DNA of 64,000 bases. It comes from Candidatus Cloacimonadales bacterium. Its GTDB lineage: Bacteria > Cloacimonadota > Cloacimonadia > Cloacimonadales > JAFGVF01. Numbering within the stretch: position 1 is the stretch's first letter; every line of letters begins with the position of its first letter. This document shows positions 2,811 to 57,880 of this stretch, in pieces. The stretch is from contig JBAYZI010000001.1 in NCBI GenBank assembly GCA_041672585.1, forward strand, positions 1,014 through 65,013. Reading direction: 5' to 3'. The notes under the pieces were generated by a model. The model was given only the letters and a program-made list of their open reading frames with translations. It was not told where the DNA came from and ran no database searches. A program made the position numbers and the translations under genes.

Positions 2811-2818
2811 GATTCCCC

Positions 2819-17946: not shown

Positions 17947-17954
17947 AAAAACAC

Positions 17955-20795: not shown

Positions 20796-20804
20796 TAAGC
20801 TACC

Positions 20805-23800
20805 TTATTCCCTGTCTAAATTATATCTTTTTATCTTTTTGATCAAGCCTTGTCTGCTTAGTCCAAGTGCTTTAGCTGCTTGAGTCTGATTCCAGTCAGA
20901 CTCATCTAATGCTTGATTAATCATCTGAATCTCTAGCTCCTCAACTGCATCTTTAAGGAATTGCGGTTTAGAAAGTAGGTTAATTGTTGTCTTATTGGCT
21001 GCGAAGTTAATCAGTTCAGGAGAGACATCATCAGCTTTAATAAAAGCACTACTATCTGCTAAGGTAACAGCTCTTTCGATTTCATTCTCCAGCTGTCTGA
21101 CATTACCCGGCCATTCATAATTCTTCAAAATCGTCATTGCCTCATCAGTTATACCGCTGACATTCTTATTAATATGTTTATTATATTTATCCAAGAAGTG
21201 AACTGCCAAGAGCGGAATATCATCGCGACGTTCTGTTAAAGAGGGTAATTGAATTCTGATTACATTAAGTCTATAATAGAGGTCTAATCTAAACTCACCG
21301 GTTTTGACTTTATCAATTAGGGAGACATTAGTCGCACAAACTACCCTTACGCTCACAGTTTCAGTCTTGGTTGCACCTACTCTTTTCACTTCGCCTTCTT
21401 GCAAGAATCTTAATAACTTTGCTTGAGTAGAAAGGGAAATATCAGCAATTTCATCTAGGAAGAAAGTACCGCCGTCGGCAAGTTCAAGCAATCCCTTCTT
21501 ATCATAAGCAGCACCTGTGAAAGCACCTTTGACATGTCCGAATAACTCAGACTCGAGCAATGTTTCCGGCAAAGCTCCACAATATTGAGCAATAAACTGT
21601 TTGTTCCTTCTAATACTGCTATAGTGAATAGCGCGTGCAATTAATTCTTTACCTGTACCGCTTGGTCCTTCCACTAAAATAGTAGTCGGAGTATCTTTAA
21701 TTCTATTGACCAGATCAAAGATTTCTAACATCTTTTTACTTTTACCAATGATATTAAAAGGATTAGATTCTGTTATTTCGCCTCTAATCGCAGCGTGAGT
21801 CTTTTCTAAATCAGAAGTCCTAATATTCTCAATCAAAACAATAATCTGATTACACAAAGCAGAAATCATATTAATCGACTTCTCTGGGAAGTAGTGAGTT
21901 CCATGTTTAGTCATGAGAATTATCACACCTTGAGACTTATTTCTCACAGAGAGAGGGAAGGCAACAATATGATTATAGATTGGAGCAAAACTTGGTTGCT
22001 TATGATCAATCTTCTTAGCTGCCGTGAATGATTGTCTGCCAATATCCATAATTACGTCATAATATTTATCGCTCTTTTCGATATTGATAAACTTCAAATA
22101 CTGCCAACTATCTTTAATAGTTTGATTGCTGTATAAACAGACAATTGCACTATCTGCTTCGGCAAAATCAACTAATTTAGTGGAAGATTCTTCTAGCAGA
22201 GTATCAAAATTAGTAATTGTACCGAGGTCTCTGGTTATTTCATAGAATTTATTTGTAAGATGGTCTTGATTTTTATTACTCACTAATTCAGCTTTATGTT
22301 CTTTAGTAATTTTGTTTATCAGGATATCAGTTTTTTCGAGAAGTTTTATAGCTCCAAACTTCTTAATAGATTTTCTGTTATTATTAAGAATCTCCAAAGC
22401 TTGCTCCCATTCCTGTTGTTCTGATAAGAAAGTTGCAAGCAGATAATTTGCTTGAGCCAGTTCATACTGTTTGGAGTTTGATAAGAATAGCTCTATTGAT
22501 TTTAGAACATACTTCTTAGCTACTTCATAATTATCTTTTTCTAGAATTGCTTTGAGGTAATATGATTTGCCCAGTTCATTGGTGAGGTTGAGTTCCTCAG
22601 CAATAGCTAAAGCTTGATTCAAATAGTAGGAAGCACTTTCATAATTATGAGTCATAACAAAATACATTGCCTGTTTCTGATATCCTTCCACAATCTTATG
22701 TTTAGCATCCACAGATTTAAAGAAGTCCAGACTTTCCACTATATAAGAGTAAGCCTCTTTGAATTTATGCAGTTGAGTCAACACAGAACCAATATTGCCA
22801 TAGAGATCAGCTTTGATATTCTCATCTGTTATTTTAGGAAGAAGCTCCATACCTTTGAAGTATAAATCATAAGCAATATTGAACTCTCCGCGCTTTTCAT
22901 AAATCTCGCCAAGGTTGCTGTAAGAGATAATCAAGCCATCGAAATCTTCATACTCTAAACACTTATCAATTGCTTTTTGATAATACTCAATCGCTTTATC
23001 CCAATCGCCTTTAGAGTTGAACAGAGTTCCCAGATTATTATAGGTAGGAATAAGAACGCGGTAAAAATTGAAGTTTATAGCTATTTCTAAAGATTTCCTA
23101 AAGGCATCCTCAGAATTCTTATAATTCTTTTCATCCATATAGGTTACGCCCAGGTTATTGTAGATATTGGTAATCTGATATGGCTCATTTAATAGAGTTT
23201 GTATTTTCAAAGCTTCTTTGAGATAATAGATAGATTTGTTTCTATTACCTTTATCATCCATTAAACCACCTAAATTGTTATAGCAAACAGAGATTCCATT
23301 GAGGTTATATCTTTCTTGCTCGATAGCAAGGCTCTTCTGGTACATCTCTTCAGAGTTATCATATTCACCTTTAAATTGATGTAAAACGCCAATATTATTA
23401 TAAACTGCTGCTAAACCAATGAAGTTTTCAGCTTTCTTATAATATGACTCAGCTTCTCGAAACTGATCAAACGCCTTATCATAATCATTATTGAAATAAT
23501 GTAATTTACCGGTGAGTTTTTTGGTATCTGCCAGAATATTCGCTTGCATATTCTTATCTTCAATTAGGAAAGCATTCTGAATAGTCATTTCCAACATTAA
23601 ATTAGATTCGACAAATTCTTCATTGTCTATTAAAATCTCAGCTTTTAATAACATGATTTTCGTTGTCCAAAGAGTATCTATGTTTTCAGGAGAGTACTGT
23701 TTAATAATCTCTAAGGCAAAGTTAGAAGAGTTGGAGTTAAAAAGAGCTTTGGCTAAATAATAGATAATATCCGCTTCCGGTGAACTTTGTTTGCTACAAG

Positions 23801-25067
23801 TATGCAGATATTCTCTAAAGTAATCAGCAGATTTCTCAAAGTTATTTAAATCTAAGTGAGCCAAACCCAGTTGTTTTATTATTTCTAACTTCTTATCTAT
23901 TTTTTTAAGCTTCACAAACATAAAATTCAGGATAACTATCATACTTTGATAATCATATAGTAACTTTAAGTTTTCTAACGCCTGTTTAAAGAGCGGAGCA
24001 TCATAGTTATTTTGTAAGATATAGTAGTTTACGATATTATATGAATCAATATTAAAGTGTTGCAAAAGTTCCACACATCGTTCAATTTGAGGTTGGAAAT
24101 TCTTGATTGACAAATTATTAAAATAATATTGATAAGAAGAAATTTTGTGAATAAAGTAGTTACCCTTGTGATGAACGATTAAATAAGACTTTTCTAAGAT
24201 TTCCAGGTTTTCATCCAATTTTTTAGGAAAGAGAGTCTGTAAGATCTTGTACTCCGCATGTTTATCTAAGATATAAATACAGGAAAGTATCTCTTTTTGG
24301 AAATCAGTTAAAGACTCAATTCTTGCGCCGTGAATCGCGAAACTATCTAAGTTTTTATCTATGAATTCTGTAAGGTCTAACTTTCCTCTACTTTTGGATA
24401 AAGATGAAACAATATGGTTTACTATATAGAGATTACCTTTAGAGATGTTTTTAATTATTTCCGCTTCATGCAAAAAATCACTTTTCATATTAGGGAAACT
24501 TACTTCCAGTATTTTAACAATATCTTCTTGGGTAAGAAAATTCAACACGAATTGTTCAGAAAATGTGAAATTACTTACAGGAGTAAAAGCTACGATCTTC
24601 AAAGGAATTTCTGCCCAATAATTAATTATATACTGAATATAATCGCGTGTATAGGAGTCTAACAGATGGCAATCATCTATCAGCATGATGCCGGGACGTG
24701 CAAAATCGCGAAGTTTTAGCTGCTCACTGAAGAAGAAGAAGAAGTCATATTTTTGCCCGGTTTTGTATTCTTTGCTTAAATCATGAATAGTCTGGAAATC
24801 TTTGTCGCTAATCCCGGTAATTAACTGAATAAATTCCTTAAAGTGGTTCTGTCCAAAAACACTTGGAGTTAAGACATGATAGAAGCTACCTTTTTTCTCT
24901 AACCTCTGGATTAAGTTTTTAAACAACAGAGACTTACCGGTTCCCGCATTTCCTGTAACTTCTATTAAAGAACTACCCTTCTCCTCTAACTTATTTAAAA
25001 GCTCTGACAGCTTAGATATTTTCTCGACAATATATTTTTCCATAGCTTGGTTAGTACCAATTTCCAT
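20805..25067 (-). CDS. 1,420-aa sigma-54-dependent transcriptional activator with N-terminal STAND/AAA_16-type ATPase, long TPR array and GAF domain
   Basis: Walker A GNAGTGKS and Walker B IMLIDDCH near the N-terminus. About 500 aa of TPR-like repeats (YNNLG/YNNIG periodicity). A GAF-like segment. EBP AAA+ core GPSGTGKE...GAFTGA (nt 21511-21528)...FLDEI...R-finger region. C-terminal Fis-type HTH QTQAAKALGLSRQGLIKKIKRY. Confidence 0.85.
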   Translation of the reverse strand: MEIGTNQAMEKYIVEKISKLSELLNKLEEKGSSLIEVTGNAGTGKSLLFKNLIQRLEKKGSFYHVLTPSVFGQNHFKEFIQLITGISDKDFQTIHDLSKEYKTGQKYDFFFFFSEQLKLRDFARPGIMLIDDCHLLDSYTRDYIQYIINYWAEIPLKIVAFTPVSNFTFSEQFVLNFLTQEDIVKILEVSFPNMKSDFLHEAEIIKNISKGNLYIVNHIVSSLSKSRGKLDLTEFIDKNLDSFAIHGARIESLTDFQKEILSCIYILDKHAEYKILQTLFPKKLDENLEILEKSYLIVHHKGNYFIHKISSYQYYFNNLSIKNFQPQIERCVELLQHFNIDSYNIVNYYILQNNYDAPLFKQALENLKLLYDYQSMIVILNFMFVKLKKIDKKLEIIKQLGLAHLDLNNFEKSADYFREYLHTCSKQSSPEADIIYYLAKALFNSNSSNFALEIIKQYSPENIDTLWTTKIMLLKAEILIDNEEFVESNLMLEMTIQNAFLIEDKNMQANILADTKKLTGKLHYFNNDYDKAFDQFREAESYYKKAENFIGLAAVYNNIGVLHQFKGEYDNSEEMYQKSLAIEQERYNLNGISVCYNNLGGLMDDKGNRNKSIYYLKEALKIQTLLNEPYQITNIYNNLGVTYMDEKNYKNSEDAFRKSLEIAINFNFYRVLIPTYNNLGTLFNSKGDWDKAIEYYQKAIDKCLEYEDFDGLIISYSNLGEIYEKRGEFNIAYDLYFKGMELLPKITDENIKADLYGNIGSVLTQLHKFKEAYSYIVESLDFFKSVDAKHKIVEGYQKQAMYFVMTHNYESASYYLNQALAIAEELNLTNELGKSYYLKAILEKDNYEVAKKYVLKSIELFLSNSKQYELAQANYLLATFLSEQQEWEQALEILNNNRKSIKKFGAIKLLEKTDILINKITKEHKAELVSNKNQDHLTNKFYEITRDLGTITNFDTLLEESSTKLVDFAEADSAIVCLYSNQTIKDSWQYLKFINIEKSDKYYDVIMDIGRQSFTAAKKIDHKQPSFAPIYNHIVAFPLSVRNKSQGVIILMTKHGTHYFPEKSINMISALCNQIIVLIENIRTSDLEKTHAAIRGEITESNPFNIIGKSKKMLEIFDLVNRIKDTPTTILVEGPSGTGKELIARAIHYSSIRRNKQFIAQYCGALPETLLESELFGHVKGAFTGAAYDKKGLLELADGGTFFLDEIADISLSTQAKLLRFLQEGEVKRVGATKTETVSVRVVCATNVSLIDKVKTGEFRLDLYYRLNVIRIQLPSLTERRDDIPLLAVHFLDKYNKHINKNVSGITDEAMTILKNYEWPGNVRQLENEIERAVTLADSSAFIKADDVSPELINFAANKTTINLLSKPQFLKDAVEELEIQMINQALDESDWNQTQAAKALGLSRQGLIKKIKRYNLDRE

Positions 25068-25566
25068 GACAACCTCATATTTTGATTAATAAATGATTTT
25101 TCTAGTGTAAACTTTGTATAACCATCTGTAAATAGTTATTACAATTTAGTCAAGAGAAAATTTGTTTTATTAAGAGAAATATCGTAAATACTCACTATTA
25201 TAATTATCTAAACCATTCTAAGTCAGGTGAATAGATTGAAAATTATAACATCTCGATCTTCCTGATTTTATAATTCCTCCCAAAATAAAACTGTTCTTTT
25301 CCCTAAGACTCCCCTGGCACCCTCTTGACTACTCGGATTAAATGTCGCTAAAGTATCGGTAAACCTATGCAGGTCAAGCTAATGACAGAATGGCGATAGG
25401 TGTAGAAAATGAAATTAGTGGTTATTTTCTCCAAATTTAATCACTGTTTTGAACAAAGAAACACAATTTACCTGTTTACACCTGCAAACTTGGTAATCAT
25501 TGAAATTAGGTAAAATCAACAAAATAAATCTTCTTTGTCCTTTATGAATAAATTTGGGCTAAAGTT

Positions 25567-25600
25567 AATGCCATGTAGTTAGTTAGGGAATAATGGCATT
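25567..25600. promoter_or_regulatory. inverted repeat AATGCCAT-N18-ATGGCATT, candidate upstream activator site
   Basis: Perfect 8-bp arms at 25567-25574 and 25593-25600. They lie 47-80 bp upstream of the candidate -24 element. Confidence 0.3.
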
Positions 25601-25645
25601 TCTTTAGAAAGATTCTAATATTGGCAAGTTTTCAACTCAGGCATT

Positions 25646-25661
25646 TGGCATAAAACATGCT
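25646..25661 (+). promoter_or_regulatory. candidate sigma-54 (-24/-12) promoter for the giant-protein operon
   Basis: TGGCAT-aaaac-ATGCT. GG at 25647-25648 and GC at 25659-25660 have the canonical 12-nt register of TGGCAC-N5-TTGCW, on the strand of the giant gene and beside a divergent EBP gene. Confidence 0.4.
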
Positions 25662-25851
25662 TTTTATTCTCCCAATTTAAAGACTAAATAAACCCTGATT
25701 TATATAAAGACAAAAAAAGCTAAGATAAAAAATAAAAAACTTGACAATTTTTGACATTAGTTAACAAATAGGAAGAATGAACTTATATTTTGGCTAAGGC
25801 TGACTTAATTTTGAATTTCGTAATAATAAAACTAGATAGGAGAAAACGCTA

Positions 25852-26016
25852 ATGATTAGCAAGTTAGACAAGAACTTTTTGACAGTAATGAACCGTGGTG
25901 GACCATCTTTTTGGTGTGGAGAAATTGACAGAAATGCGCAAAATTTTATGAGTTTTGAAACGAGGTTGCCTGAATATTCAGGTATATCCTTACAAATATT
26001 AGAAAAAAAATTGTAA
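25852..26016 (+). CDS. unannotated 54-aa ORF directly upstream of the giant gene (hypothetical)
   Basis: AGGAGA plus 8 nt plus ATG. Encodes MISKLDKNFLTVMNRGGPSFWCGEIDRNAQNFMSFETRLPEYSGISLQILEKKL. The stop lies 17 nt before the giant ORF start. Below the track size cut-off. Confidence 0.3.
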   Translation: MISKLDKNFLTVMNRGGPSFWCGEIDRNAQNFMSFETRLPEYSGISLQILEKKL

Positions 26017-26033
26017 TTTGGAGGTTTCAAATT

Positions 26034-41000: not shown

Positions 41001-43124
41001 GAAAATATCAATGTTAGTATCCTTGCAATAACAGATGTTAACCCTGCTGGAATTCTTATCCAGACATCTAACCCTGTTCCTACCGCAAATGCTAATGAGT
41101 ATAGATTCGGTTTTGCTCAATTACAGCTTCCTAACTCACTCGGTTTGAAGATTAAAGTAAATGCAATTGATGATATCGATGTAAATAATGTTGCTGAACA
41201 AACATTCAGTTTAGATTATATGGATCCTGTTGTTACTGCTACTTCTCCTATAAACCCTGTAGTTAACTATGGTACTAACGCTCAAATCGCCTTCTCATTC
41301 ACAGACCCTCAAGGTCATTTCATTGATGACTATTTTGTACAACACTTCTCAGGTGCTTCAGGAATTGATATTTCAACTCTTGTTGTTACTCTTGATGGTG
41401 TAATTATAAATGGTGAAGTTAATAATGGTTCATTTGCTTATGCTGCTACAGACTTAATTCCTGGCGCACATACTGCAGTTGCTTCTATTAGTGACTTTGT
41501 CGGCAATACAGGTTCCGCAACAGCTAACTTTGAAGTTGTCGGTGGCCCTGCACCAGTCGTAACATTTAGCCCTCTTGCTAATGATACTTGGTGGATTACC
41601 ACTTCTCAACAATATGAATTAGGTTTAACAGTTGAATCAAACCATACAGGTACTGAAATTCATTCTGTTCTAGCTAACATCATAGAGTTACCTAACAACG
41701 AAGTTATCCAAGGACCTATCTCCGTTACTCTTGTAAACGGTGTAGGAACTATCAACTTCCACGGTGGCATCGTATCTGCTGACCAAACAGCAATTAAAGT
41801 TGTAGTTGTAGCTGTAAACGATTGGGCAATTGAAACTACTTCAAGTCAAACTTATCCAATCGATAACAGTAAACCTGAATTAACAATTGTTAACCCGGTT
41901 GAAAATTACTCAACTATAGTTGGAAATAGTGTTAATGTAAGTATTCTTGCAACAGACACAATGTCAGGCTTATTATCATCTTCAATAAAAGTTACTTCTC
42001 TTAACAGTGACTTTGAAGCTGAAGGAATTGATAGTGAAACTCCTGAATCATTTAACCTTGTTGTAACTCCTATAAAAGCTGGAACTTATGTAATCGAAGC
42101 TCAATCTAGAGACTTAGCCGGTAACGTAACTACTGTTACTAGAAACTTCGAAATCACAGCTCCTGCTCCAATCGTTACTATCTTCAATCTTGAAGAATCA
42201 AATGGTTGGGTTAACACACAAAACAATAATAGTATCACATTCACAGTTGATGGAAACGGTTCTGATTTAGATAACACATCTATTATGGCTAGCTTCATTG
42301 CTATTCCAAGTAATGTAGTTATCTATGAACCATTTACTGTTCAACCTACAAATGGTGAATATATCGTTGGAATCCACGGTGGTGTAATTCCTGCAGATGC
42401 AAGTGCAATTAAACTTGTTGTAACAGCTTCTAACGTGGCTGGTGGTAATGCTGTAGCAAACCACAGTTACCCAGTTGACTCTTACAGTCCTACTGTTGTA
42501 TTTGTATCTCCTGAAGCTAATACTGCATATACTCTTGCTGAGAATATGTTTGTAGAAGTTATGATGGAATTATCAGATGTTATGCCTACTGTAAAATCAA
42601 TGGCAACTTCAGGTTTAGACAAGTTAGAGATCATGGTCTATAACAGTGCTAACCAAGTAGTTGTTGATACTACAAAGACAAATGTCTCCAATGTTTACGT
42701 ATGCCGTGTTCCTGTAAGTGGCACAGGTCAATATCTTATTGAAGCAACCATCTATGATAGAGCTGGAAACAGAACTACCAAGATGATGAACTTCAATGTT
42801 GAAGTTGATTACTCTGCCATGAACTTAGAGTTCACTGCAAAACCTTATATGTACCCTTCACCTCTTCAAAGAGGAAGTGTTGGTACTTTCGTAATTCCTA
42901 CTACTAAAGAAGCTCAAGTTACTATTGAAATCTACGATTTCGCCGGTAAGCTTGCTCGTAAAATTAGCCATAACTCAATTGGTGGAAACACTAATAACAT
43001 GATTCAATTCGATGGAAGAACTGACGACGGCAAGAGTTTAGCTCGTGGTGCTTACTTCGCAAGAATTAGAGTGGTTGATGGTGCTTTGGAACTTAATAAG
43101 GTTGTTAAGATAGCAATTCAATAA
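26034..43124 (+). CDS. giant secreted cell-surface protein (5,696 aa) of tandem Ig-like (Big/cadherin-like) domains with C-terminal FlgD-Ig/T9SS-type sorting domain
   Basis: GGAGG RBS and signal peptide (ILILLFVMLTSLAFA). At least 17 domain-boundary motifs of the type VD-x-x-(A/V)-P, often preceded by D-x-x-G-N. Acidic, Cys-poor, N/T/V/D-rich. C-terminus VTIEIYDFAGKLARKI...FDGRTDDGKSLARGAYFARIRV. Confidence 0.85.
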   Translation: MFNKHPILILLFVMLTSLAFAATTVTATHVIYDSNNVVQEVAVVGSRVHFIVNMNSDATIDAVKIKSDNIIGASASIELAFSSKAAYTYEGDYIVVPGDVNKPIAGEVYQVFVYVDGGTDPINTQANYFLPIDNQIPFITNGLSTLIESPAGKTTFGIGDQVKFIFRRNWNDSTKDVVAATLDLTSIGGPAEVVTTRNIEIFTATYVLTENGILGGYTPSIVVPIKMTDINGNVSVVHASNVISGDAANNPYPADTSRPTFGNISDLQDNGQFRFSPGNDMFGIWDTEPNTISAKIEIPGFGQVGQTNKFVLLVQNENTDSNVGNIVFTAGASNVTIAGDVVTFVWDGKVDGSVLSEGIYGLTLVKLIDVAGNETTLESLPPVMNPQISQGQTELNALDFVVDNIAPLFENLNGTPSELRVFDSASDNQRYIINRLIDESTNAEGEENNFGPEDTVTSTDAVYFAFSVKRDFANDLEPERKEFVKYWVEVASVANPTMKRYFYPASTQLGGLVESKMAIPFVNTEAYATVNTKAEFSWSPSTLEYAAGDYTVTAYIQDNAGNIRTSVKTVALVNDYDGYVPPIIPPDPTDESLITSYKIASTHEGGANALDAMEGLIPIFYVNSYFPGGDMYFSTGSNHIDIEIEVSNVDNAEKVIFTRNNPNLPAQFNAQLTTFDANNRVTLSVPMSAFAETATGYFTYGSATSDIKIEVLTRNLENGEFNVYNVLAGNKQFKIVRPVQPVWPVIVNDIVDVVPHCISPGNPSWAYDAVTNPANEAGMPHNGTDHPFNDISFEIDASNVNYAWTLRVYDPDNPALVKSSTGVRLADSGVFNGSLQFANLTNSNNNIVGVLGSKLLNVELKVTPEGYTDTGYVAPQTAYSYADTRVDNENPVILGTDGNKYLPNPAGNTLFLANGINSFNFDIETNEHLVENGWSALVYNEDTLQLVPGAGVTITAVGSGDTFTCPNSGNVGYKNFNITAEIPAFADGVLENVNYTLILRTPNDFGGNPGRHNNPPYPYDADAWHTDSSEAFVHFVVLMEAPEVVTTSAAFYFVNSDNDSVLDKAAQAGNFQFNVSIKGYPGITPIATTRGVESYLCEVDFSKFTGVTTTAPQVVDLANGNWEIKYTGSYTGVAAGINTGDVIPIPVNLSLGFTPGDVAVHTNHDFTYNGVIYDNVAPIFTNNTVPNIVNENSVLTLKYKITDNIAGVQDDKVTIKCSDSALIPNNTVATALADNVYQWLITIPANYTTNTLTFNFVAKDMLDNTKTHSHIVDVIPIPTVSNVVVQNTNPAHPNIIKNGDKVKVSFNLTDAERIDAVNITLKNMPVFPITNYVDGYNELIINPFNTAGYAQYEFVTASVAIVHPYERLADNSSANNNAAAVKTFVDNNQVVISDLKFFENGVEKTDNVFSAEAHDDFYVEATFVAYDGHISANKLLLNYAGVVAGTPTLMSSPVQSTPVTGFPKNTFTYRWEKSKFDYAKFVDSVAPFMGYVDLNFNLEITSDYAFFTEYNEDARAILDVPTITNVEIFNVTAPDQLADHGNHIDILENNNKVKVTFDLTYANRISEAVITLNNGTTKTINAGLVNGVNTAIIDDFGIGNPEYVTLKVDELKIIHTNEHSVFESIDASTNTLVPFVDNYQVNIVDFRAFVNGSPTDNYFSIDSNQTVRFEADIIAHAGQLTTSNVVLKYKGITATSAQLDNTVLHSEPKTGFVKNTYTYSWDNADFDYANFSNQINGFEVVPFVIEARSDFDFVATPYNQDVVALNVPEYTFNGISPERYSGFDPDGWFAPEHDVRLTMTVVTPMSNINPRAEFDNITNNFPDVNWVAGDVTTTFVTVGGVNYYTHVVEWIEIPDVQACWNTYADGETVQVEIQYNDFYISTPISIFRDIKVDLEVPTYERYSIVQAAGTITDFATANAIPGINTLANHVGPHNFDLSLNNPADLNSYEFDGSLFVKRIVEDMNGVSVVEAGVALPTISGNWMTPELLGSEVVSPHEIALIWKFTPVDPTLVTNTDIVEIQFNQLEDLVGHLNYAGVYNSPSARYAEAGPITTINFIASQADVEGITAFQYDGIDRMNSETSPYISTGARIGLILEVEPHQNDNATVTSVEILADNYNLATNDWVTLVDNGNNQYFLGSDVFVNETSLGWLPLEYRITYSTNEVSQNSVSNVYNLIDVTSTNLVAISVWSETLGESGMYYVTPGDDATIKVVFSSNAPLIGTVLKPFVTLTDFSNILDMADPYVVPQSNITWDGTNWVAEVTGILVKDSHSLTSQEVSVTATNITGQMTSASGKVISYAGSGPIVPIIKHVELITDNAVNLLAVSGTQVVNPVVNVYINTVYQEFINNVTIDPIAGLAFSPYTVASTTDHDSKWLVTIPVTITDPTLFTEGDIVTLNITSIRDPFEITATVFEHHESLDVEVDGDEFDIVINNPGTQNPILGDFELLVDFSNFGETYDPAYVPVLADFVISSPQLVNDLNPTNMVGDVVSLTIDASDFTADAETLGSFDITVTYTNIYGFIKSETETILLDATAPVVIANGITFDSVSGPTSYAWGSVISYDKNWTSLTVELEDPVMFGTNGVGIATANISMALGIVTPSTPAFTNLTTSLNGNVLEFRFNGNYSGFDLAEGDYIITVNAVDALGNAYSDTQEFRYAHSPSGVTALTDPSIILNSGIDVGLEFLVNDPDGVVNTVEFQVYLDSNNDGDYIDDLANLVLQTSDSVYPYGFEWDLSNSIYTSYQYNPDYDLNSNGDNLDADENVRNYIVRVLTTSSQMRAVSDTYFTYSVADVTAPEVTDVLAAGFNPYQVVYDYITPANNNIDFTALVGTWTDVDYVELTVNGDLLTIDPATSFVNWVYDATDIGEVVITAQAFDFVGNVSAAADFSTVLTILNPSYDKFYNLTLIDYDNYDTDNSIANGTVYSPNNPLITNNVRLYAEYPNGLAGISEIQFYVNKIETATGIVSTLPVDNDASVNPQYGNDNIVSPINCWDETAGKWNSWITVDPAIYTNNGNYDGTDYTYEFYAVLIDSYTSIEVIQSGVTNVDTGFRVDYLKPTLTINAASVTHTSYTYYDAATDRLVFDLVDNDALAIDINVMIVDYNGINVADNTNIIVDPITNTVSIPWIGLNEIEGEGVITYNVTATDVNGNVSVVTPIDVFVDNQAPQTTIANLAYVTDADNGGAAMNSFHVYDGNPIAVIAENAENLTIQIDRAQILGLSSENTATWANRTQPWYNNANDDIYPPVNLYRNIDGAGWNLIAYDHEVDANNMYEFSITVDTGNIVEFAVIAEDTRGNIEGDVVVRDAFGNVLRPLNGTLEDEELTDAINLTVNVLYPIDITTTIVNHNADDVINGLALLTANVATPTDIISVEFQYLADGVWTALGTDDSMLDVDYKFSIDRDQIPYTVIPGVHVEIIDSNNIATMEEIWENGDNWSDTFTLLRDSYTVNYYVDANNDGVIDGNEIANYLIKTETIMADGYAYQFDTTTIVDGSYLFRVVPFDGLDATDDIAAAVPMNLIIDNTAPEYDVTALNFVTIDGYNVLDENVEFTLAYANANDVHMVRAWLVNIANPADNYRLVYETYAAYDVRTTDFSVNLTTLATPVPDGNYYLKVNVQDFNNNANIQSPVLYNDLHVDTNAPVITQVDNALNMSGIYTATHQFEVTYSDYLAQLLDVNNDALGVKEIEATFTHNAIVDVVDVKVSDDGTLVVFDWTPSQAMMDEVINGHDDILVNVDVKVTDHNDYVSDIFNAGTFVLRSAEVGAKIMVVSDFRNGVETYHQTSVTDNNEIHDVIGGNILNIYAFLPEGNNVIMPNNVSFEYWDGTNWVQYATNATWNPIASFTGTGTISGYSKYMEVNWNIANLDGDYTVRTVSEYGFGNIVNETHLHIWNSTIVPEIVVSTTDGAVTTEVNRGTEYIVSLGNIVSTHPEFLNQVNYMYRFLDANNNVASPWNQLSGFTADDYNWTIGMDYLFAEKVQLAVQVENIFNNIADQVSFIANGGTPYVVDIVDSEAPMITDLTVTQAGNPVVIDSWVAIANALDIAVTVDNAVLDLSSVVIALDGTEVYSVAYDTNNQVDPVAVNYTLDISALTTGTYQIEVITSDFVGHTYTEVFGFSVDTDVPTGALVLVENVNNEITRGVAYTFNANAMDNVTATDDLVINYFWSEANAAVWTPLTLDANNQWNIPQGWVIGASYDFKAEMEDEYNNVGETVVTYSVFDNITPLIANSTNNLVDGSIFNMNDEIVLTFDVDASNILNNNIELQYADVLNNTWMSLGTTPAVLNGVVSEVTFGNLGLPSGFYDFKALISDLAVPANQFDIDLASMVYFDADAPEVFFTNIDNTTEYVLGNNVSINADVNYTDGINNIAPLDVASVEFLVDGVSHTVVETAPYTFVWNTALLANVGTYTIEAIVTDNDNFTNNVLQNVVVVTPDENDPYAVITGFEFNNETISSDKMYAKVTNWGNNITSVVAQYTENNVDWIEFAINTTNNDPLYDFDFNAEAIQNAIAVKVLVKMNNNQESSLVYPLDVTFNNGMFDLTDANGDIEIHENNLVIVDTDSRPNVIRIDENGYAGYETINNNNEFNLVVNANDELPGYWLSGVANNAAWIKFVKLDTQIGTATNNGVTVTYNNPFWFVMLDNDMLLADHYAQLTDQVLVRSITNGNALYTLPITGTVAAEGDIVALAWDAVLADFVELDVTYNQTNATMTFTAPVNTVVTVGQYVGFEMFVTDFAPVNDDVYMNAGTLWTLPNVTMDFTVYHEETAQGYQLPAGFGLGNISITLNDGVNNVNNIALTNGVVSFDLINMNAGVNELMVNVEMNGFNANQTLTFSVDNTIPTIAIDQTVILSAAQRTLSATMQDAQTGLVDYNLVITNNAPAVAAVINVPMNEITVAGNVYSYELSIEELVTLVPQPMRSGRNNRAVASLNVQWTAVNNLDQINVVNANITANVVVNRPIITIDNSGFENGWWVNPAMSNQILMTVVPATGRTIALENINVSILAITDVNPAGILIQTSNPVPTANANEYRFGFAQLQLPNSLGLKIKVNAIDDIDVNNVAEQTFSLDYMDPVVTATSPINPVVNYGTNAQIAFSFTDPQGHFIDDYFVQHFSGASGIDISTLVVTLDGVIINGEVNNGSFAYAATDLIPGAHTAVASISDFVGNTGSATANFEVVGGPAPVVTFSPLANDTWWITTSQQYELGLTVESNHTGTEIHSVLANIIELPNNEVIQGPISVTLVNGVGTINFHGGIVSADQTAIKVVVVAVNDWAIETTSSQTYPIDNSKPELTIVNPVENYSTIVGNSVNVSILATDTMSGLLSSSIKVTSLNSDFEAEGIDSETPESFNLVVTPIKAGTYVIEAQSRDLAGNVTTVTRNFEITAPAPIVTIFNLEESNGWVNTQNNNSITFTVDGNGSDLDNTSIMASFIAIPSNVVIYEPFTVQPTNGEYIVGIHGGVIPADASAIKLVVTASNVAGGNAVANHSYPVDSYSPTVVFVSPEANTAYTLAENMFVEVMMELSDVMPTVKSMATSGLDKLEIMVYNSANQVVVDTTKTNVSNVYVCRVPVSGTGQYLIEATIYDRAGNRTTKMMNFNVEVDYSAMNLEFTAKPYMYPSPLQRGSVGTFVIPTTKEAQVTIEIYDFAGKLARKISHNSIGGNTNNMIQFDGRTDDGKSLARGAYFARIRVVDGALELNKVVKIAIQ

Positions 43125-43128
43125 AATT

Positions 43129-43150
43129 GGGAGGGGGTACGCCCCCTTCC
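43129..43150 (+). other. GC-rich stem-loop with a UACG tetraloop immediately 3' of the giant ORF
   Basis: GGGAGGGGG-tacg-CCCCCTTCC is a 9-bp stem including one G.U pair. It starts 5 nt after the stop codon and has no U-tract. It ends 22 nt before the next start codon. Confidence 0.6.
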
Positions 43151-43171
43151 TCTAATAATTTGGAGGAATAA

Positions 43172-44128
43172 ATGACTAAAAGTGTAAAAGTGATGATAAT
43201 TATAGCAGTGATGCTTGGTCTTGTTTCCGCTCTTATTGCTGATAATAACCATAATAACTCTGAACTCCGCATGGGGTATGGTGCAAAAGGTATGGCAATG
43301 GGTGGTACAGGTACTGCATATATGAATGATATCACAGCTGCCTACTGGAATCCTGCAGGCTTAGCTAAGATTGTGGATTATCAAGTAGGAATAGATTATA
43401 TGGACGGTATTGGCTTAGATAGAAATACAAGCTTTGCCGGCATGGGAATGAGATTTAAACATGGTTACATGGCTGTAAGCTGGCTAAACGCCGGTGCAAC
43501 TGACTTTGATGGGTACGATGATTTCGGTACTTCAACAGGTAGCTATGATTACCAAAAGAATAATATAAACTTAAGCTTAGCAACTCGCACAGGAAAGTTC
43601 CTTTGGGGTTCAAGTATTAAGATGATGTTTGATAATATCAATGATGACAAACAGAACGGCTTTGGTATTGACCTTGGCACAATGTATGAAATGAACGAAT
43701 ATATCTCTTTTGGCGCACATGTCAGAGACGTATTTAGTAAATTCAATAAAGTAAGTGTTCCAATGCAATATAATCTCGGTGTTGCAATATTCCCTGTTAG
43801 GGGTTTAACTGTATCCGGAGATTTAAGGCAAGAAGAAAGCAGCAAAGATATCACAGTGCACATGGGTGCTGAATACTGGACAAATATTGGTTCAGATACA
43901 GAAAGTGGTACCGGTTTAGGTACAATGAGAAACTCTTCTAGTAGCTCATGGGAAAATATGTTATCTGAAGTTCAGGCTGGTGTTAGAATTGGTGCTAATG
44001 ATGGACAATTTACTGCCGGATTTGGTATTAGATTTAGAGTTGTAGAAATGAACTATGCTTTTGTTAAAGAAGATTCCTCTGGAATCAACAAAGACAATCA
44101 TAGATATGGTTTAACATTCAGATTCTAA
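43172..44128 (+). CDS. outer-membrane beta-barrel protein, PorV/PorQ/FadL-like
   Basis: Signal peptide. Motif GAKGMAMGGTGTAYMNDITAAYWNPAGLA. Amphipathic beta-strand pattern and a C-terminal ...YGLTFRF. Same family signature as the 1962-2810 protein. Confidence 0.6.
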   Translation: MTKSVKVMIIIAVMLGLVSALIADNNHNNSELRMGYGAKGMAMGGTGTAYMNDITAAYWNPAGLAKIVDYQVGIDYMDGIGLDRNTSFAGMGMRFKHGYMAVSWLNAGATDFDGYDDFGTSTGSYDYQKNNINLSLATRTGKFLWGSSIKMMFDNINDDKQNGFGIDLGTMYEMNEYISFGAHVRDVFSKFNKVSVPMQYNLGVAIFPVRGLTVSGDLRQEESSKDITVHMGAEYWTNIGSDTESGTGLGTMRNSSSSSWENMLSEVQAGVRIGANDGQFTAGFGIRFRVVEMNYAFVKEDSSGINKDNHRYGLTFRF

Positions 44129-44137
44129 GATAGATTG

Positions 44138-44203
44138 TTTTGAGAGGGAATTTTCCCTCTCAAAACTTCTTTTAAGCTCTATGTGGTAGAGCTTAAAAGA
44201 AGT
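44138..44203 (+). other. two adjacent perfect hairpins in the barrel-ompA intergenic gap
   Basis: TTTTGAGAGGG-aatttt-CCCTCTCAAAA forms an 11-bp stem (44138-44165). ACTTCTTTTAAGCTCTA-tgtgg-TAGAGCTTAAAAGAAGT forms a 17-bp stem (44165-44203). Confidence 0.7.
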
Positions 44204-44240
44204 TTTGAATGAATGATAATTAATCAAAAAAGGAGATTTC

Positions 44241-46430
44241 ATGAAAACTAAACTTATTATTGCTTTGGCTCTTTTAAGTTTGTCGATCCTGTTTGCTCGA
44301 ACCGGAGTAACATACATTGAACAAGCTATGGGCTTCTTAGAGGGAGGATTTTGTAACGAAGCTGAAGTCATTATGACCAAAGCTATCGAGCAAAGTCCTA
44401 AAAATTACGAGAACTATTTAGTAATGTTTAAAGTACAGTTAGCTAAAGATAATATGTCAAAAGCTCATCAGAATTTAGACTACTATGTAAAAAACGCATC
44501 AGGAATAGATTATGATTATTACCAAGATCTACTATTCCTACTTGAAGATTCTGCAGTTAGAAAAGCCAAAGGACTTGCACAATATCAAATTGGTTTTCTT
44601 CCAACATATTTAAACAGTGAATATCCTGATTTTGCTCCTGTGCTTAGTAGTGATGGGAGTGAATTGTATTTTACTTCTGCAAGAGATAGTAAAACATTAA
44701 AAGAAAACATTTTTGTAAGCAAGAGAATCGGTGGCACTTGGGGAAAAGCAGCGCCAGTAAAAACTTTAAACTCTGATTATAATGTATCATTGAACTCTTT
44801 CTCAAATGATGGAGAGTGGGCTTATTTATTTGGTAATTATAATAATGAAAAAGGCAGAAATGACATTTATAGAGCTAAAAGAGTTCAATCTGCTTTTGCA
44901 AAACCTGAAAAGATTGTTGCACTCTCTTCTAAATATAGAGATGTACAGCCTTATGCTTTTGAAGATAGAGTTATGTTCTTCACCTCAGATAGACCTGGCT
45001 CATTGGGCGGTTTTGACATTTGGGTTTCGGAATATAACAACGGTTGGCAAGAACCTGTAAATCTCGGCTCTAAAATTAACACAATTCATGACGAACAATC
45101 ACCTTTCCTACACTGGGATGGTCAAACTCTATTCTTCGCTTCTAATGGTCATCCTTCCTTTGGTGGATTTGACATTTTTAAAGCTAAAAAGAATGGTAAA
45201 TCATGGACAGATTGGGAAACACCTGTTAACTTAGGTCCTGAAATTAATACTATCTATAATGAAAGACACTATTATGGTATAAATAACTCTAATGAGTTCT
45301 TTATTTCTTCAGACAGAAGAACAGGTAAAGGTGCTGAAGATATCTTTAAAGTAGTTATTCTTAATGAAGAGTACATGAATGGTGTTAGAGTTTATGGTGA
45401 AGTTGTAGATAATTATGGGAACCCTGTCTCTGCTGACATTAATTGGAAATACACTTTTGATAATAAAGAGATCTCTAAGGTTGCTCAGTCTAATCATAAA
45501 GGATATTATAATATATATTTACCTAAATTAGAAACAGTTTCCTTAATGATAGCAAAGCCTAACTATCAAACATATTCAAGTTCACTTAAAATTGATGAAG
45601 ATGCTAGTGAACTAATTCATGATATTCAAATTACTTTACTTGAAGAGAAGAATTATGTTATTGAAAACATCTACTTTGACTTCGATAAAGCTACTTTAAA
45701 AGAAGCTTCTTTTGAAAGCTTAGATAACTTAGCATCTACTATTCTTAATGCTCAAAATATTAACGTCTGTATTGTCGGTCATACTGATAACATTGGTAGT
45801 GCCAAGTATAATAAGAATCTCTCTGAGCAAAGAGCAAAGACTGTTTATCAATATTTAATGAATAAAAATATTGAGGCTGGTATTCTTCAATATAGAGGAG
45901 AAGGACAAGATTCTCCAAAAGTTCCTAATGATACTGAAGAGAACAGACAGCTTAATAGAAGAGTTGAATTTGGTGTAATGAAAACTGATAAACCGATTGT
46001 AACAGAAATTGAAACTCCTAAGGCATCTGAAACTCCTAAAACAACCGAAACTCCCAAGGTAACAGAACCAGTGGTGAAAGAAGTTGTTAAAGCGGTGGAA
46101 GTCGATAATTCTGCATTTTTAGACGAAGAGAGTGTAAGAGAGATTGTTCAACAATCCGAAAACTCCAAGATTCCATTCTTAAAAGAAGCTGAAATTAATA
46201 TTATCAAAAGTAGAATTCTAAAAATAGCAAATGATTATCAATTAGAAAGCAAAATACAAGTTCGTCTTGTAAATATTGATAGTAGGATTTTTGTAACAGC
46301 AGTTAATTTAGCTAATGGAAAAAAGAATGCCGATTTTGATAAAGAAGTTGGAAACTTACTTAATGGTTGGTTTATCCCCGGTGTTGAACTTACTGATTAT
46401 GTAGTTGAAGTCGATCCTTCACAACAATAA
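44241..46430 (+). CDS. OmpA-family protein with N-terminal TPR, TolB-like PD40 repeats, CarboxypepD_reg-like domain, and a C-terminal extension
   Basis: Signal peptide. Repeated PD40-type segments (DFAPVLSSDGSELYFTS, RVMFFTSDRPGSLGGFDIW, QTLFFASNGHPSFGGFDIF). OmpA_C core NIYFDFDKATL...GHTDNIGSAKYNKNLSEQRA...NRRVEF. Then ETPK repeats and about 130 further aa. Confidence 0.8.
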   Translation: MKTKLIIALALLSLSILFARTGVTYIEQAMGFLEGGFCNEAEVIMTKAIEQSPKNYENYLVMFKVQLAKDNMSKAHQNLDYYVKNASGIDYDYYQDLLFLLEDSAVRKAKGLAQYQIGFLPTYLNSEYPDFAPVLSSDGSELYFTSARDSKTLKENIFVSKRIGGTWGKAAPVKTLNSDYNVSLNSFSNDGEWAYLFGNYNNEKGRNDIYRAKRVQSAFAKPEKIVALSSKYRDVQPYAFEDRVMFFTSDRPGSLGGFDIWVSEYNNGWQEPVNLGSKINTIHDEQSPFLHWDGQTLFFASNGHPSFGGFDIFKAKKNGKSWTDWETPVNLGPEINTIYNERHYYGINNSNEFFISSDRRTGKGAEDIFKVVILNEEYMNGVRVYGEVVDNYGNPVSADINWKYTFDNKEISKVAQSNHKGYYNIYLPKLETVSLMIAKPNYQTYSSSLKIDEDASELIHDIQITLLEEKNYVIENIYFDFDKATLKEASFESLDNLASTILNAQNINVCIVGHTDNIGSAKYNKNLSEQRAKTVYQYLMNKNIEAGILQYRGEGQDSPKVPNDTEENRQLNRRVEFGVMKTDKPIVTEIETPKASETPKTTETPKVTEPVVKEVVKAVEVDNSAFLDEESVREIVQQSENSKIPFLKEAEINIIKSRILKIANDYQLESKIQVRLVNIDSRIFVTAVNLANGKKNADFDKEVGNLLNGWFIPGVELTDYVVEVDPSQQ

Positions 46431-46451: not shown

Positions 46452-46479
46452 AGCCCTTTCTTAACGAGAGGGCTTTTTT
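46452..46479 (+). terminator. rho-independent terminator after the OmpA-family gene
   Basis: AGCCCTTTC-ttaac-GAGAGGGCT followed by TTTTTT. Confidence 0.65.
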
Positions 46480-46485
46480 GATTAA

Positions 46486-46746
46486 ATCCCCAAAGGGGAT
46501 AAGTAGTTTAGCCCGGGGTCTCATTTTGCCTTCAAGCAAAATTGACCCTGGGTATATTATCTAAAAAATAAAAGAACCCTGAAAGGGTGAAATAGATTAT
46601 AACGGATCCTGACTGACATCAATCAACTATTTAAATCTATTGATCCCTTTCAGGGATATGTTTATCTTAGGGATTCTATACCCGGGGTTAATCCTTGAAA
46701 TACAAGGATTCAACCACCGGGCTAAACTACTGATCCCTAAAGGGAT
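46486..46746. repeat. 261-bp composite palindrome made of two inverted copies of a structured repeat unit (family B)
   Basis: Each arm carries the same ordered modules. They are ATCCCnAAAGGGAT, then AGTAGTTTAGCCCGG, then an outer stem (CCCGGGGTC/GACCCTGGG-type) around a variable inner hairpin, then a CCCTGAAAGGG hairpin, then AATAGATT. A third unit lies at 57771-57845. Confidence 0.85.
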
Positions 46747-46787
46747 ACAACCTATCTTTACCATTTAACCTAAAGTTGAGCAGTTAA

Positions 46788-55833: not shown

Positions 55834-56260
55834 AGTGGCAACTCCTAAACTTCTTCTTGACTTAAGAATATTAAAAGGCTCATATTTGGCAAGAAAAGAT
55901 TAAAATGAAATGGGTTTTAGTCTTACACGTCTGAATTTAAGAGGTTTTATCGCTTATTTATAATCCGCGTTAATCAGCGTAATCTACCAATAAATTCGTC
56001 ATTCTTCTTACTCTGAGGAAAATAAAAAGAATAATTATTTTTGCTTCTTAAAGTGAACCATAGCAAGCAGTTGAGTTTCTCTACAAAAGTTCTGTATCTC
56101 TTCCTAAATAAATATAAATTGTTATATAGAGGGAAGTTGCCAAGTTTGTTAATAATTTGAGTTAAAATATCGTTGCTTGACAAGATAAATCACTTCAATA
56201 AACTTTACCTTACCCACTTAAAAGAAGAGTTTGCCTTTGAGTGGAGAAACCATAAATAAT

Positions 56261-56380
56261 TGTGGATAAGTTAATTGTTCACTTTTAGTATAATTAAATA
56301 AATACTTAGTAATTATAGCTTTAGCCTATAACTATGGTGTATTGTACAAAAACTAATAGTTGTCCACACCGTGTGGATAA
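56261..56380. promoter_or_regulatory. DnaA-box cluster / dnaA promoter, probable part of oriC
   Basis: TGTGGATAA at 56261-56269 is a perfect box. TTGTCCACA at 56360-56368 has one mismatch. TGTGGATAA at 56372-56380 is perfect and convergent with the previous box. All sit in an AT-rich 578-bp gap upstream of dnaA. Confidence 0.6.
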
Positions 56381-56411
56381 CATAATAATAAATTTGAAAC
56401 AAAAGGTAGCT

Positions 56412-57746: not shown

Positions 57747-57770
57747 TAATTTGAATTAATAACTGTTTAA

Positions 57771-57880
57771 TTCCCTGAAAAGGATAAAATAATTTAGCCC
57801 AGGGTCTCATTCTGTTTGCAGAATTGACCCTGGGTACGATTCTACCCCCAGTATTGCCCCATTCCTCAGGAATAGGGCAA
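57771..57880. repeat. single family-B repeat unit plus adjacent hairpin
   Basis: TCCCTGAAAAGGA...TTTAGCCCAGGGTC-tc-ATTCTG-tttg-CAGAAT-t-GACCCTGGGTA matches the 46.5-kb units. It is followed by TTGCCCcATTCCTcAGGAATaGGGCAA. Confidence 0.8.

Follow-up and report, generated by a model that had tools for sequence, protein, structure and literature searches.

The DNA analysed, a window of 64,000 nucleotides, belongs to a Candidatus Cloacimonadales bacterium of the phylum Cloacimonadota, not Bacteroidota, and the host is thus no relative of Flavobacterium, the genus used for comparison in an initial annotation of the sequence. The locus consists of a sigma-54 activator gene on the minus strand and, across a leader of 966 bp, a divergent plus-strand block encoding a small protein, a giant secreted surface protein, a PorV/PorQ-family barrel and a PorE-like OmpA protein (Table 1). 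The gaps after the giant and barrel genes were 47 and 112 nt, respectively, and the positions given initially for the ORFs, gaps, terminator and palindrome were all reproduced. The flanking genes had been called housekeeping, and MurB, a DinG-like helicase and a B12-dependent ribonucleotide reductase were indeed identified there.

Table 1. Features of the locus and of the second cargo-barrel pair (positions are those of the window).
Feature	Position	Strand	Basis or remark
Second, smaller cargo-barrel pair	1962-4225	-	cargo 2819-4225, barrel 1962-2810
Sigma-54 activator	20805-25067	-	ORF, 1420 aa
Initial sigma-54 candidate site TGGCATAAAACATGCT	25646-25661	+	TGGCAT-N5-ATGCT, 9/12 match
Best-conserved promoter-like element of the leader	25740-25769	+	A-tract, CTTGACAAT, (T/A)(C/G)AAAT
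Small ORF	25852-26016	+	ORF, 54 aa
Giant secreted surface protein	26034-43124	+	ORF, 5,696 aa
Sec signal peptide of giant, MFNKHPILILLFVMLTSLAFAA	26034-26099	+	translation read by eye
C-terminal sorting/anchoring domain (CTD) of giant	42822-43121	+	T9SS type A-like, FlgD_ig 'W/F-D-G' variant
Two stem-loops 3' of the giant's stop codon	43132-43167	+	RNA folding
PorV/PorQ-family barrel	43172-44128	+	ORF, 318 aa
Double hairpin, barrel-OmpA gene gap	44137-44207	+	hairpin search and RNA folding
PorE-like OmpA protein	44241-46430	+	ORF, 729 aa
Intrinsic terminator closing the block	46452-46474	+	9-bp stem, 5 GC pairs, then TTTTTT
Palindromic element	46480-46750	.	arms 46496-46516 and 46717-46737

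Composition analysis of the giant protein found it to be acidic, rich in V, N and T, and all-beta by prediction. It had been described as an Ig-repeat protein, a label that is weakly supported: a match to Big_7 (28 bits, the sole Pfam match above threshold, all others being subthreshold) and 6-10 occurrences of an Ig-type closing motif point to a few Ig-type modules, but internal sequence repetition was almost absent. Domain searches, including Pfam, found no recognisable adhesin domains in the body of the protein, a point against an adhesin role. Orthologues were colinear, with 68% identity in L014 and 47% in L002. The best-conserved region was the CTD, at 78% identity compared to 39-47% elsewhere in the protein from the L001/L010 genome. 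The initial view of this domain as FlgD-Ig-like rather than type B agreed with our searches, in which the CTD alone scored 29.1 bits against the type A model TIGR04183 (cutoff 23) and 26.3 bits against FlgD_ig, and the type B model matched only 3 of 14 relatives. When the cargo tails were aligned, the PorU-CTD model matched 14/14 and the PorZ-CTD model 13/14; PDB matches of the giant's CTD were PorU (6za2, E=6.5e-11) and PorZ (5m11, E=3e-6). Closest to it are the CTDs that PorU and PorZ retain.

The barrel possesses a signal peptide, an NPAGL hatch motif and a C-terminal ...TFRF. It matched the PorV/PorQ family model NF033709 with 73.3 bits, which is below the NCBIfam cutoff of 90, and the PorV_fam, PorQ and PorV2 models matched 34/34 of its relatives. 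An AF2 model had 14 strands (pLDDT 78.8), and its top Foldseek matches were the PorV chains 8gl6_F and 6h3i_F from SprA complexes (TM 0.63-0.65). The earlier assignment to PorV/PorQ, and not to PorP/SprF, was therefore upheld. The family is very large, with 34,319 representative clusters, and extends to Elusimicrobia and KSB1. Among the best 150 clusters, 13 were fusions of barrel and OmpA domain, and other clusters carried TPR or SH3 extensions.

The OmpA partner reported downstream of the barrel was likewise recognised, by Pfam matches to PD40, CarboxypepD_reg and OmpA. The predicted order of this putatively periplasmic protein is a helical TPR-like N-terminus, a PD40 beta-propeller, CarboxypepD_reg and OmpA_C, after which come a linker rich in TPK and one more C-terminal domain. 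The PorE profile NF052230 matched with 203 bits (E=7e-60, positions 90-601 of 648), under the NCBIfam cutoff of 600 for PorE, and the CHU_0125 model matched with 206 bits. PDB matches of the OmpA domain included PorE itself (6top, E=1.4e-14), and a peptidoglycan-binding motif, NLSEQRAKTV, was readable. Unlike PorE and its homologues, the protein has no lipobox cysteine in its sequence and does have the additional C-terminal domain.

The order of giant, barrel and PD40/OmpA gene recurred at 66%, 47% and 40% barrel identity. A metagenome scan combined with look-ups yielded 13 further distinct loci of the barrel subfamily. A CTD-bearing ORF ended just upstream of the barrel in 13/13; it was usually giant, and most of these cargo ORFs exceeded 3,200 aa and extended beyond the 10-kb flank. 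An OmpA domain was also present in 13/13, either in a separate next gene (5 loci) or fused to the barrel (8 loci), and T9SS core genes were found beside the barrel in none of the 13. The conserved unit is three genes: the giant CTD cargo, the PorV/PorQ-family barrel and the PorE-like protein. This synteny supports the functional module, analogous to SprB/SprF, that had been proposed initially.

The barrel and the OmpA protein could instead be the general housekeeping PorV/PorQ and PorE that serve all CTD cargo and lie beside the largest cargo gene by chance. In P. gingivalis, PorE and PorV belong to the core and are each encoded once (PMC9143113, PMC10947112), the two proteins here match the general models for PorV/PorQ and PorE, and no further PorE-like gene was found within the window. 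However, the window contains a second pair, made up of a secreted protein of 468 aa whose CTD is of the WDG type (CTD profile, E=1.4e-8) and, 8 nt downstream of it, a PorV/PorQ-family barrel of 282 aa (72.7 bits against PorV_fam) with no OmpA partner after it. The window's two barrels share 25% identity, and each lies directly 3' of WDG-type cargo, whereas an M1 peptidase in the same genome, whose CTD is plain type A, has no adjoining barrel. The invariable company of CTD cargo, and never of T9SS core genes, at the 13 subfamily loci also argues against a housekeeping role, as does the cargo CTD identity to the window, which falls roughly in parallel with barrel identity. We consider this explanation unlikely.

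The activator has the architecture STAND (AAA_16)-TPR-GAF-sigma54 AAA+-HTH_8, with a Sigma54_activat match of 228 bits. Its C-terminal half (GAF, Sigma54_activat and HTH_8) resembles enhancer-binding proteins of the NifA/NorR type, the NifA model aligning with residues 940-1417; it differs from them in about 930 extra N-terminal residues comprising the STAND NTPase and a TPR array, and in a full-length family seen only in Cloacimonadota. The gene heads a tightly packed regulator-dinG-murB array, and the family was syntenic with dinG-murB in 10/10 loci examined.

Contrary to the initial description, the leader was not wholly non-coding, although its length stood. The 54-aa ORF, which ends 17 nt before the giant's ATG and encodes no signal peptide, was intact in 6/6 close genomes, with exactly 54 codons, no indels and its own TAGGAGA Shine-Dalgarno sequence; variable columns numbered 22/26/36 by codon position. 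It was degenerate in L010, and domain and profile searches gave no family match. This ORF is probably a real gene confined to the close clade. Upstream of it, the promoter-like element, in which CTTGACAAT holds a -35-like TTGACA with (T/A)(C/G)AAAT exactly 17 nt on, was invariant in 6/6 leaders, at position -293±1 relative to the ATG of the giant gene. Transcription most likely starts from this conserved, putative TTGACA-type promoter about 290 nt before the ATG.

These data bear on the four-part unit proposed initially, in which the adjacent activator would be a dedicated regulator that switches on an operon of the giant, barrel and OmpA genes from a -24/-12 promoter at about 25.65 kb. The activator is a genuine enhancer-binding protein in which a GAFTGA motif can be read, the window has the 9/12 site TGGCATAAAACATGCT 388 nt before the giant's ATG, and the giant gene lay beside the activator at 6/6 loci with at least 65% regulator identity, the divergent layout being found in every assessable genome in that range (the window, L010, L014 and L016-L019). 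On the other hand, orthologues at 41-44% regulator identity had no giant gene nearby (0/3 loci) and always had dinG (and murB) tightly downstream, and the long contigs on which the trio occurs with barrel identities of up to 47% (214, 216 and 316 kb) appear not to be among the regulator-family contigs. None of the five close leaders had the TGGCATAAAACATGCT site, nor did L010, and 3/5 close leaders (L014, L017, L019) had no GG-N10-GC on the same strand. We rejected it as a singleton, the TTGACA-like block being conserved instead. Sigma-54 gating by the neighbouring regulator is thus quite improbable. Of the four proposed parts, giant, barrel and OmpA protein recur together; the activator adjoins the giant gene only in the close clade and is not among the conserved components of the cassette.

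Our preferred reading, to which we assign a probability of roughly 65%, is a T9SS-type three-gene surface-anchoring cassette made up of the giant, a private barrel and a PorE-like tether. The transcript would run through the small conserved ORF, and the hairpins that follow the giant gene and the barrel gene would modulate downstream expression. The Sec pathway would carry the giant across the inner membrane, and the T9SS, described in Cloacimonadota only as possibly present (PMC11285876), would export it by virtue of its type A/FlgD_ig-like CTD. The private 14-strand barrel, and not the general sorting pathway, would then capture and hold the CTD, comparable to PorQ with PorZ and PorV with PorU, and the PorE-like protein would staple the barrel to peptidoglycan, a task that the barrel-fused OmpA domain would serve in other lineages. 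The outcome would be a giant surface filament that is statically anchored and load-bearing, and presumably acts as an adhesin.

This arrangement had been thought undescribed, which is only partly so. Five substrate-shuttle-PorE operons, Fjoh_3952/3951/3950 among them, are described in F. johnsoniae (PMC12618676), in which a large CTD surface protein is followed by its cognate FadL/PorV-like barrel and then by a TPR/beta-propeller/CRD/OmpA_C protein, and P. gingivalis has a PG1035-PorP-PorE complex (PMC9143113). As proposed for those systems, a private shuttle would hold the cargo CTD and a PorE-like protein would tie it to peptidoglycan for static anchoring. The cassette differs from these systems in its PorV/PorQ-family rather than PorP/SprF barrel, in its type A/FlgD_ig-like rather than type B CTD, in its host phylum, Cloacimonadota, and in sister lineages that fuse the OmpA domain to the barrel. 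A form that combines a PorV/PorQ-family barrel with a type A-like CTD appears to be undescribed. In the attachment complex of P. gingivalis, PorQ holds PorZ on the surface (PMC10947112), and the PorU and PorZ CTDs stay on PorV and PorQ (PMC10202324). By analogy, the barrel here may hold its cargo at the surface via an uncleaved, type A-like CTD, although PorZ and PorU are machinery components and not giant adhesin-like cargo, and their genes are not in cargo-barrel-PorE cassettes and have no dedicated peptidoglycan tether. SprB of Flavobacterium is also a giant surface protein encoded with its cognate barrel, SprF, directly downstream, but its CTD is type B and SprF resembles PorP. This adhesin is mobile and, notably, a PorE-like partner is missing (PMC9143113). 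The tether in the cassette argues for a static, non-gliding giant.

It is very unlikely that the barrel and peptidoglycan tether form an autonomous, T9SS-independent device that anchors (or exports) proteins with FlgD_ig-type tails in lineages possibly without a T9SS. In favour of such a device, the T9SS is unproven in Cloacimonadota, Elusimicrobia and KSB1, across which the large barrel family reaches, and cargo-barrel pairs with the same CTD type are common (14 of about 59 distant PorV/PorQ-family barrels from environmental metagenomes). Against it, the giant's CTD shares homology with true type A CTDs of the T9SS, ordinary Por_Secre_tail cargo is encoded in the same genome, and, as FadL/PorV structures show, a barrel of 14 strands could not accommodate the passage of a protein of 5,696 aa.

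Because terminator-like hairpins lie between the cassette genes, co-transcription is unproven. The second stem-loop after the giant includes a CCTCT that pairs with the barrel's GGAGG ribosome-binding site; in RNA folds, the stem at this place was GC-rich in the window, L001 and L003 alike, with differing sequence. A strong double hairpin after the barrel gene had been overlooked initially. Its first hairpin has a 13-bp stem followed by TTCTTTT, the two-hairpin layout is also present in L001, and the element may be a partial terminator or may stabilise the mRNA. The terminator and palindrome reported at the end of the block are both present, but the palindrome is a dispersed repeat and not specific to the module, with copies at 57767-57836 of the window and in L014, L010, L001 and L002.

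The ORF map of the window reproduced exactly the gene layout that the initial annotation had given for 20805-46430, and the flanking genes were those it had named: murB, a DinG-like exonuclease-helicase and a B12-dependent ribonucleotide reductase.

Coordinates of the giant-protein locus and of other features in the window
Feature	Position	Strand	Details
Regulator	20805-25067	-	1,420 aa; ORF map
Regulator-DinG-like helicase-MurB array	17050-25067	-	gaps of 9 and 8 nt
Leader, regulator to giant block			966 bp; ORF map
54-aa ORF	25852-26016	+	ORF map
Giant	26034-43124	+	5,696 aa; ORF map
Barrel	43172-44128	+	47 nt after giant; ORF map
OmpA-family gene	44241-46430	+	112 nt after barrel; ORF map
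Terminator	46452-46474		3' end of block
Palindromic element arms	46496-46516 and 46717-46737		3' of terminator
468-aa secreted protein, WDG-type CTD	2819-4225	-	second cargo
282-aa PorV/PorQ-family barrel	1962-2810	-	72.7 bits; 8 nt after 468-aa cargo
M1 aminopeptidase, plain type A tail	52975-55833	-	Por_Secre_tail 59 bits; TIGR04183 48.9 bits

The three plus-strand cassette genes, which encode the giant protein, a barrel and a PorE-like OmpA protein, are a real and conserved module. Loci with 66%, 47% and 40% barrel identity had the same order of giant, barrel and PD40/OmpA, and the genes downstream of it differed from one locus to the next. At 31-35% identity, the OmpA domain was fused to the barrel, and the gene immediately upstream still encoded a FlgD_ig-tailed protein, either giant (7,321 aa) or large (1,942 aa). 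Look-ups and an 80-locus metagenome scan, with scripted ORF and HMM analysis, yielded 13 further distinct loci of this subfamily. A CTD-bearing ORF ended just upstream of the barrel at all 13 (most of these cargo ORFs exceeded 3,200 aa and overran the 10-kb flank), and every one of the 13 also had an OmpA domain, encoded by its own gene at 5 and joined to the barrel at 8. Of about 59 more distant barrels of the PorV/PorQ family, 14 likewise lay behind a CTD-bearing ORF, but none had an OmpA domain. The initial annotation had posited a four-part unit; giant, barrel and OmpA protein do recur together, but the regulator is not conserved with them.

By exhaustive profile search, the barrel family comprised 34,319 representative clusters. 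The best 150 of these included 13 barrel-OmpA fusions, and others carried TPR or SH3 extensions; the extensions are varied periplasmic or cell-wall modules. C-terminal extensions other than OmpA on related PorV/PorQ-family barrels (P0186-P0327) were TPR (8 of 44), SH3_3 (4), TSP_3 (4), DUF748 (3) and FlgT_C (2), and FlgD_ig fusions were also observed on some PorV/PorQ-family barrel matches. A relationship of the fused barrels to Myxococcus TraB was considered and dropped, the likeness being confined to the OmpA domain.

Judged by its sequence, the window's barrel is a divergent member of the PorV/PorQ family or a sister subfamily. It scored 73.3 bits against the family model NF033709, below the curated cutoff of 90; its relatives all matched PorV/PorQ models at E<=1e-3 (34 of 34), and two fused relatives, P0032 and P0036, exceeded the NF033709 cutoff at 123 and 117 bits. 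An AF2 model built with 34 homologues had 14 strands (pLDDT 78.8), and its top Foldseek matches were PorV chains 8gl6_F and 6h3i_F (SprA translocon) at TM 0.63-0.65, with FadL/TodX-type channels ranking after them. The hatch motif AYWNPAGL was invariant, and the barrel combines a 14-strand FadL-like fold with an N-terminal NPA-type hatch. PorP/SprF (TIGR03519 / PF11751) gave no match to the barrel at E<=0.01 in NCBIfam or Pfam and was not among the leading families of its 34 relatives. The PorV/PorQ-type assignment made initially agrees with both family model and fold.

The downstream protein matched the PorE profile (NF052230) over positions 90-601 of 648 (E=7e-60) with 203 bits, which does not reach the curated cutoff of 600. 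Pfam recognized a PD40 propeller, CarboxypepD_reg (CRD) and OmpA; a TPR part is suggested by a helical N-terminus and by a weak ANAPC3 match in the orthologue at a related locus, L003, and we counted the four-domain PorE architecture (TPR, beta-propeller, CRD, OmpA_C) as present. There is also an extra C-terminal domain. No lipobox cysteine follows the signal peptide (MKTKLIIALALLSLSILFA, then RTG), and the protein does not qualify as an outer-membrane lipoprotein on this feature. Its OmpA domain aligned to PorE 6top and other OmpA_C structures, and contains the motif GHTDNIGS...NLSEQRAKTV, which is predicted to bind peptidoglycan.

The giant protein has a Sec signal peptide, as read from the sequence, is acidic and rich in V, N and T, and has almost no internal sequence repetition. 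Big_7 was the sole Pfam domain over threshold, PDB sequence searches with both halves of the protein returned no relatives, and a single-sequence AF2 model of residues 5236-5473 was unusable (pLDDT 37). The sequence GxYxφxφx3Dx2GN, a closing motif of Ig type, was counted 6-10 times; the expected number was about 0 for its strict form and about 1.5 for its loose form. The name "Ig-repeat protein" that had been given to the giant therefore says more than can be shown.

The tail is the best conserved part of the giant, with 78% identity to the L001 genome compared to 39-47% for the rest of the protein. When scanned alone, the last 100 aa exceeded the cutoff of TIGR04183, the T9SS type A model (29.1 bits against 23); within 999 aa the same tail scored only 21.7 bits. 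The giant pairs a C-terminal domain over the type A cutoff with a Sec signal peptide. Por_Secre_tail of Pfam did not reach its threshold (20.5 against 27), FlgD_ig narrowly missed its cutoff (26.3 against 27), and the type B model TIGR04131 had no match in the tail and weak matches in 3 of 14 relatives. These scores support the earlier description of the CTD as FlgD-Ig-like and not type B. Cargo tails had in common the pattern (Y)PNP…IYDFxG…W/F-D-G…G…ARGxYFARI…VKIA. The nearest solved relatives of the giant's CTD were the CTDs of PorU (6za2, E=6.5e-11) and PorZ (5m11); by analogy with these proteins, we predict that the CTD is kept and does not undergo PorU cleavage with A-LPS attachment. The giant is one 5,883-aa gene in L002, and is divided into 4,068 and 1,741 aa in L001, a genome of the same species-level lineage; a frameshift, phase variation or misassembly may explain the split.

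Other cargo is encoded in the window. The 468-aa secreted protein is followed by a PorV/PorQ-family barrel, and no OmpA partner was found at this second pair (1962-4225). The tail of the M1 aminopeptidase shows that ordinary T9SS-type cargo is present in this Cloacimonadales genome, and no barrel lies beside the aminopeptidase gene. The second cargo-barrel pair and the barrel-less peptidase together argue that PorV/PorQ barrels here are cargo-specific and not general machinery.

The best-supported mechanism, to which we assign a probability of about 0.65, is that the giant's CTD would be retained by its private barrel and that this barrel would be tethered to peptidoglycan. The barrel, which is genomically linked to CTD-bearing cargo, would bind the T9SS cargo CTD and may dock on SprA/Sov, and the cassette would depend on a T9SS, a system so far only suspected in Cloacimonadota (PMC11285876). 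PorV and PorQ retain the CTDs of PorU and PorZ, and a review has hypothesized that cognate PorV-like barrels shield CTDs from cleavage (PMC10202324); PorQ holds PorZ on the surface (PMC10947112). In F. johnsoniae, five operons each combine a type B substrate with its cognate SprF-like shuttle and a homologue of PorE (PMC12618676), and PG1035-PorP-PorE of P. gingivalis is a biochemical precedent (PMC9143113). The cassette shares the logic and gene order of these systems, but it differs in its PorV/PorQ-family barrel, its type A/FlgD_ig-like CTD, its phylum and the fused barrel-OmpA forms of its sister lineages. The arrangement had been put forward as undescribed. That no longer holds for its logic and order, known from F. 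johnsoniae; however, literature searches returned no description of such an arrangement in Cloacimonadota, nor of the version with a PorV/PorQ barrel and a type A-like CTD.

T9SS biology comes almost entirely from Bacteroidota, in which private shuttle barrels are regarded as a peculiarity of type B CTDs and PorP/SprF proteins. Cloacimonadota, which abound in anaerobic digesters, are a little-known phylum. Judging from this locus and its relatives, the cognate-barrel principle would be wider and would take in PorV/PorQ-family barrels and type A-like CTDs in that phylum. A bolder reading, offered tentatively and, taken whole, one we would sooner bet against, is that the cassette represents a third class of sorting, large and so far undescribed. 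In it, proteins whose CTDs are of the W/F-D-G FlgD_ig type would bypass the general PorV-PorU route, and a PorV/PorQ-family barrel encoded for each of them would catch and keep it; where the cargo is giant, a PorE-like partner or a fused OmpA (or SH3/TPR) domain would fasten the barrel to peptidoglycan. Such a class would occur in Cloacimonadota and other non-Bacteroidota without experimental T9SS study and, if real, would contradict what is to our knowledge the current statement, that PorV handles all type A CTD cargo. The natural barrel-OmpA fusions are independent gene-fusion evidence for the barrel-peptidoglycan link proposed for PorP-PorE, and the single-chain barrel-OmpA protein and the 100-aa CTD are compact structural candidates for giant-protein anchoring.

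The regulator has an AAA_16/STAND N-terminus, a TPR array, a GAF-like region, Sigma54_activat (228 bits), a lid and HTH_8, and a GAFTGA motif is readable. The GAF-like region lay within a NifA model match, and orthologues had GAF Pfam matches. This full-length family was seen in Cloacimonadota only. Its neighborhoods do not support the proposal that it is a dedicated part of the unit. The giant gene was divergent from the regulator at 6 of 6 assessable loci with at least 65% regulator identity but at 0 of 3 with 41-44%, whereas linkage was always to dinG-murB: dinG directly followed the regulator at 10 of 10 related loci, with murB next wherever the contig allowed. The regulator-dinG-murB array persists in Cloacimonadota at regulator identities as low as 41%; oddly, it puts an enhancer-binding protein next to genes for DNA repair and the cell wall. 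We infer that no regulator-family member lies on the long contigs in which the trio occurs with a less similar barrel; the upstream neighbors of distant giants were assessed indirectly only.

Sigma-54 gating of the block, an attractive regulatory story, is corrected here as unsupported. The candidate site TGGCATAAAACATGCT at 25646 matched at 9 of 12 positions, lay in sequence that was unconserved on footprinting of six leaders, and was absent from six related leaders. A GG-N10-GC scan and alignment of six close leaders gave no conserved site, and the leaders of L014, L017 and L019 had no GG-N10-GC site at all on the same strand as the candidate. The leaders of the window and of L010, a related locus, do not align, which makes that comparison uninformative for a promoter site. 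No rpoN was found in the 64-kb window; the GAFTGA-bearing enhancer-binding proteins point to one in the genome. A strongly conserved block at 25105-25158, which contains the palindrome TGTAA-N7-TTACA, adjoins the regulator's start codon and is probably the regulator's own promoter or operator.

Six leaders shared an A-tract and CTTGACAAT at an invariant -293±1 from the giant's ATG, with the conserved hexamer (T/A)(C/G)AAAT exactly 17 nt further on. No Rfam family was found in the window, and hence no known riboswitch in the leader. The 54-aa ORF was intact in six genomes, with exactly 54 codons, no indels, its own Shine-Dalgarno and variation that peaked at third codon positions; in L010, which belongs to the 65%-identity clade, it was degenerate. 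Among the close genomes it seems to be a genuine ORF. Its conserved motifs are VKNRGEP...FETR...FLQILEKKL; the ORF matched no family, and its product may serve as leader peptide, chaperone or regulator. Conserved stem-loops 3' of the giant gene and of the barrel gene suggest that the three genes may have graded expression and not simple co-transcription.

The palindrome 3' of the block was rejected as a module boundary because it belongs to a dispersed repeat. Copies were found at 46480-46750 and 57767-57836 in the window, at 18412-18482 in L014 and at about 9581-9614 in L010; the repeats are MITE/REP-like, intergenic in these genomes, with hairpins CCCC-AAAGGGG and CCCTGAAAGGG. The barrel was 100% identical to a protein from a Candidatus Cloacimonadales MAG and the nearest regulator loci were Cloacimonadales chromosomes, which places the host in Cloacimonadota and not Bacteroidota. 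The window also lies close to the replication origin, since it contains dnaA (56334-57746) with DnaA boxes upstream. The region around the dnaA start, 55834-56400, is probably oriC; it holds perfect DnaA boxes (TTATCCACA) at 56261 and 56372 and a one-mismatch box at 56360. Over the whole window there were 42 DnaA-box-like 9-mers (20 expected) and 57 matches to TGGCAC-N5-TTGC with at most 2 mismatches (34±6.5 expected from shuffles), with one-mismatch sigma-54-like sites at 7003 and 54049; the excess may reflect codon bias.
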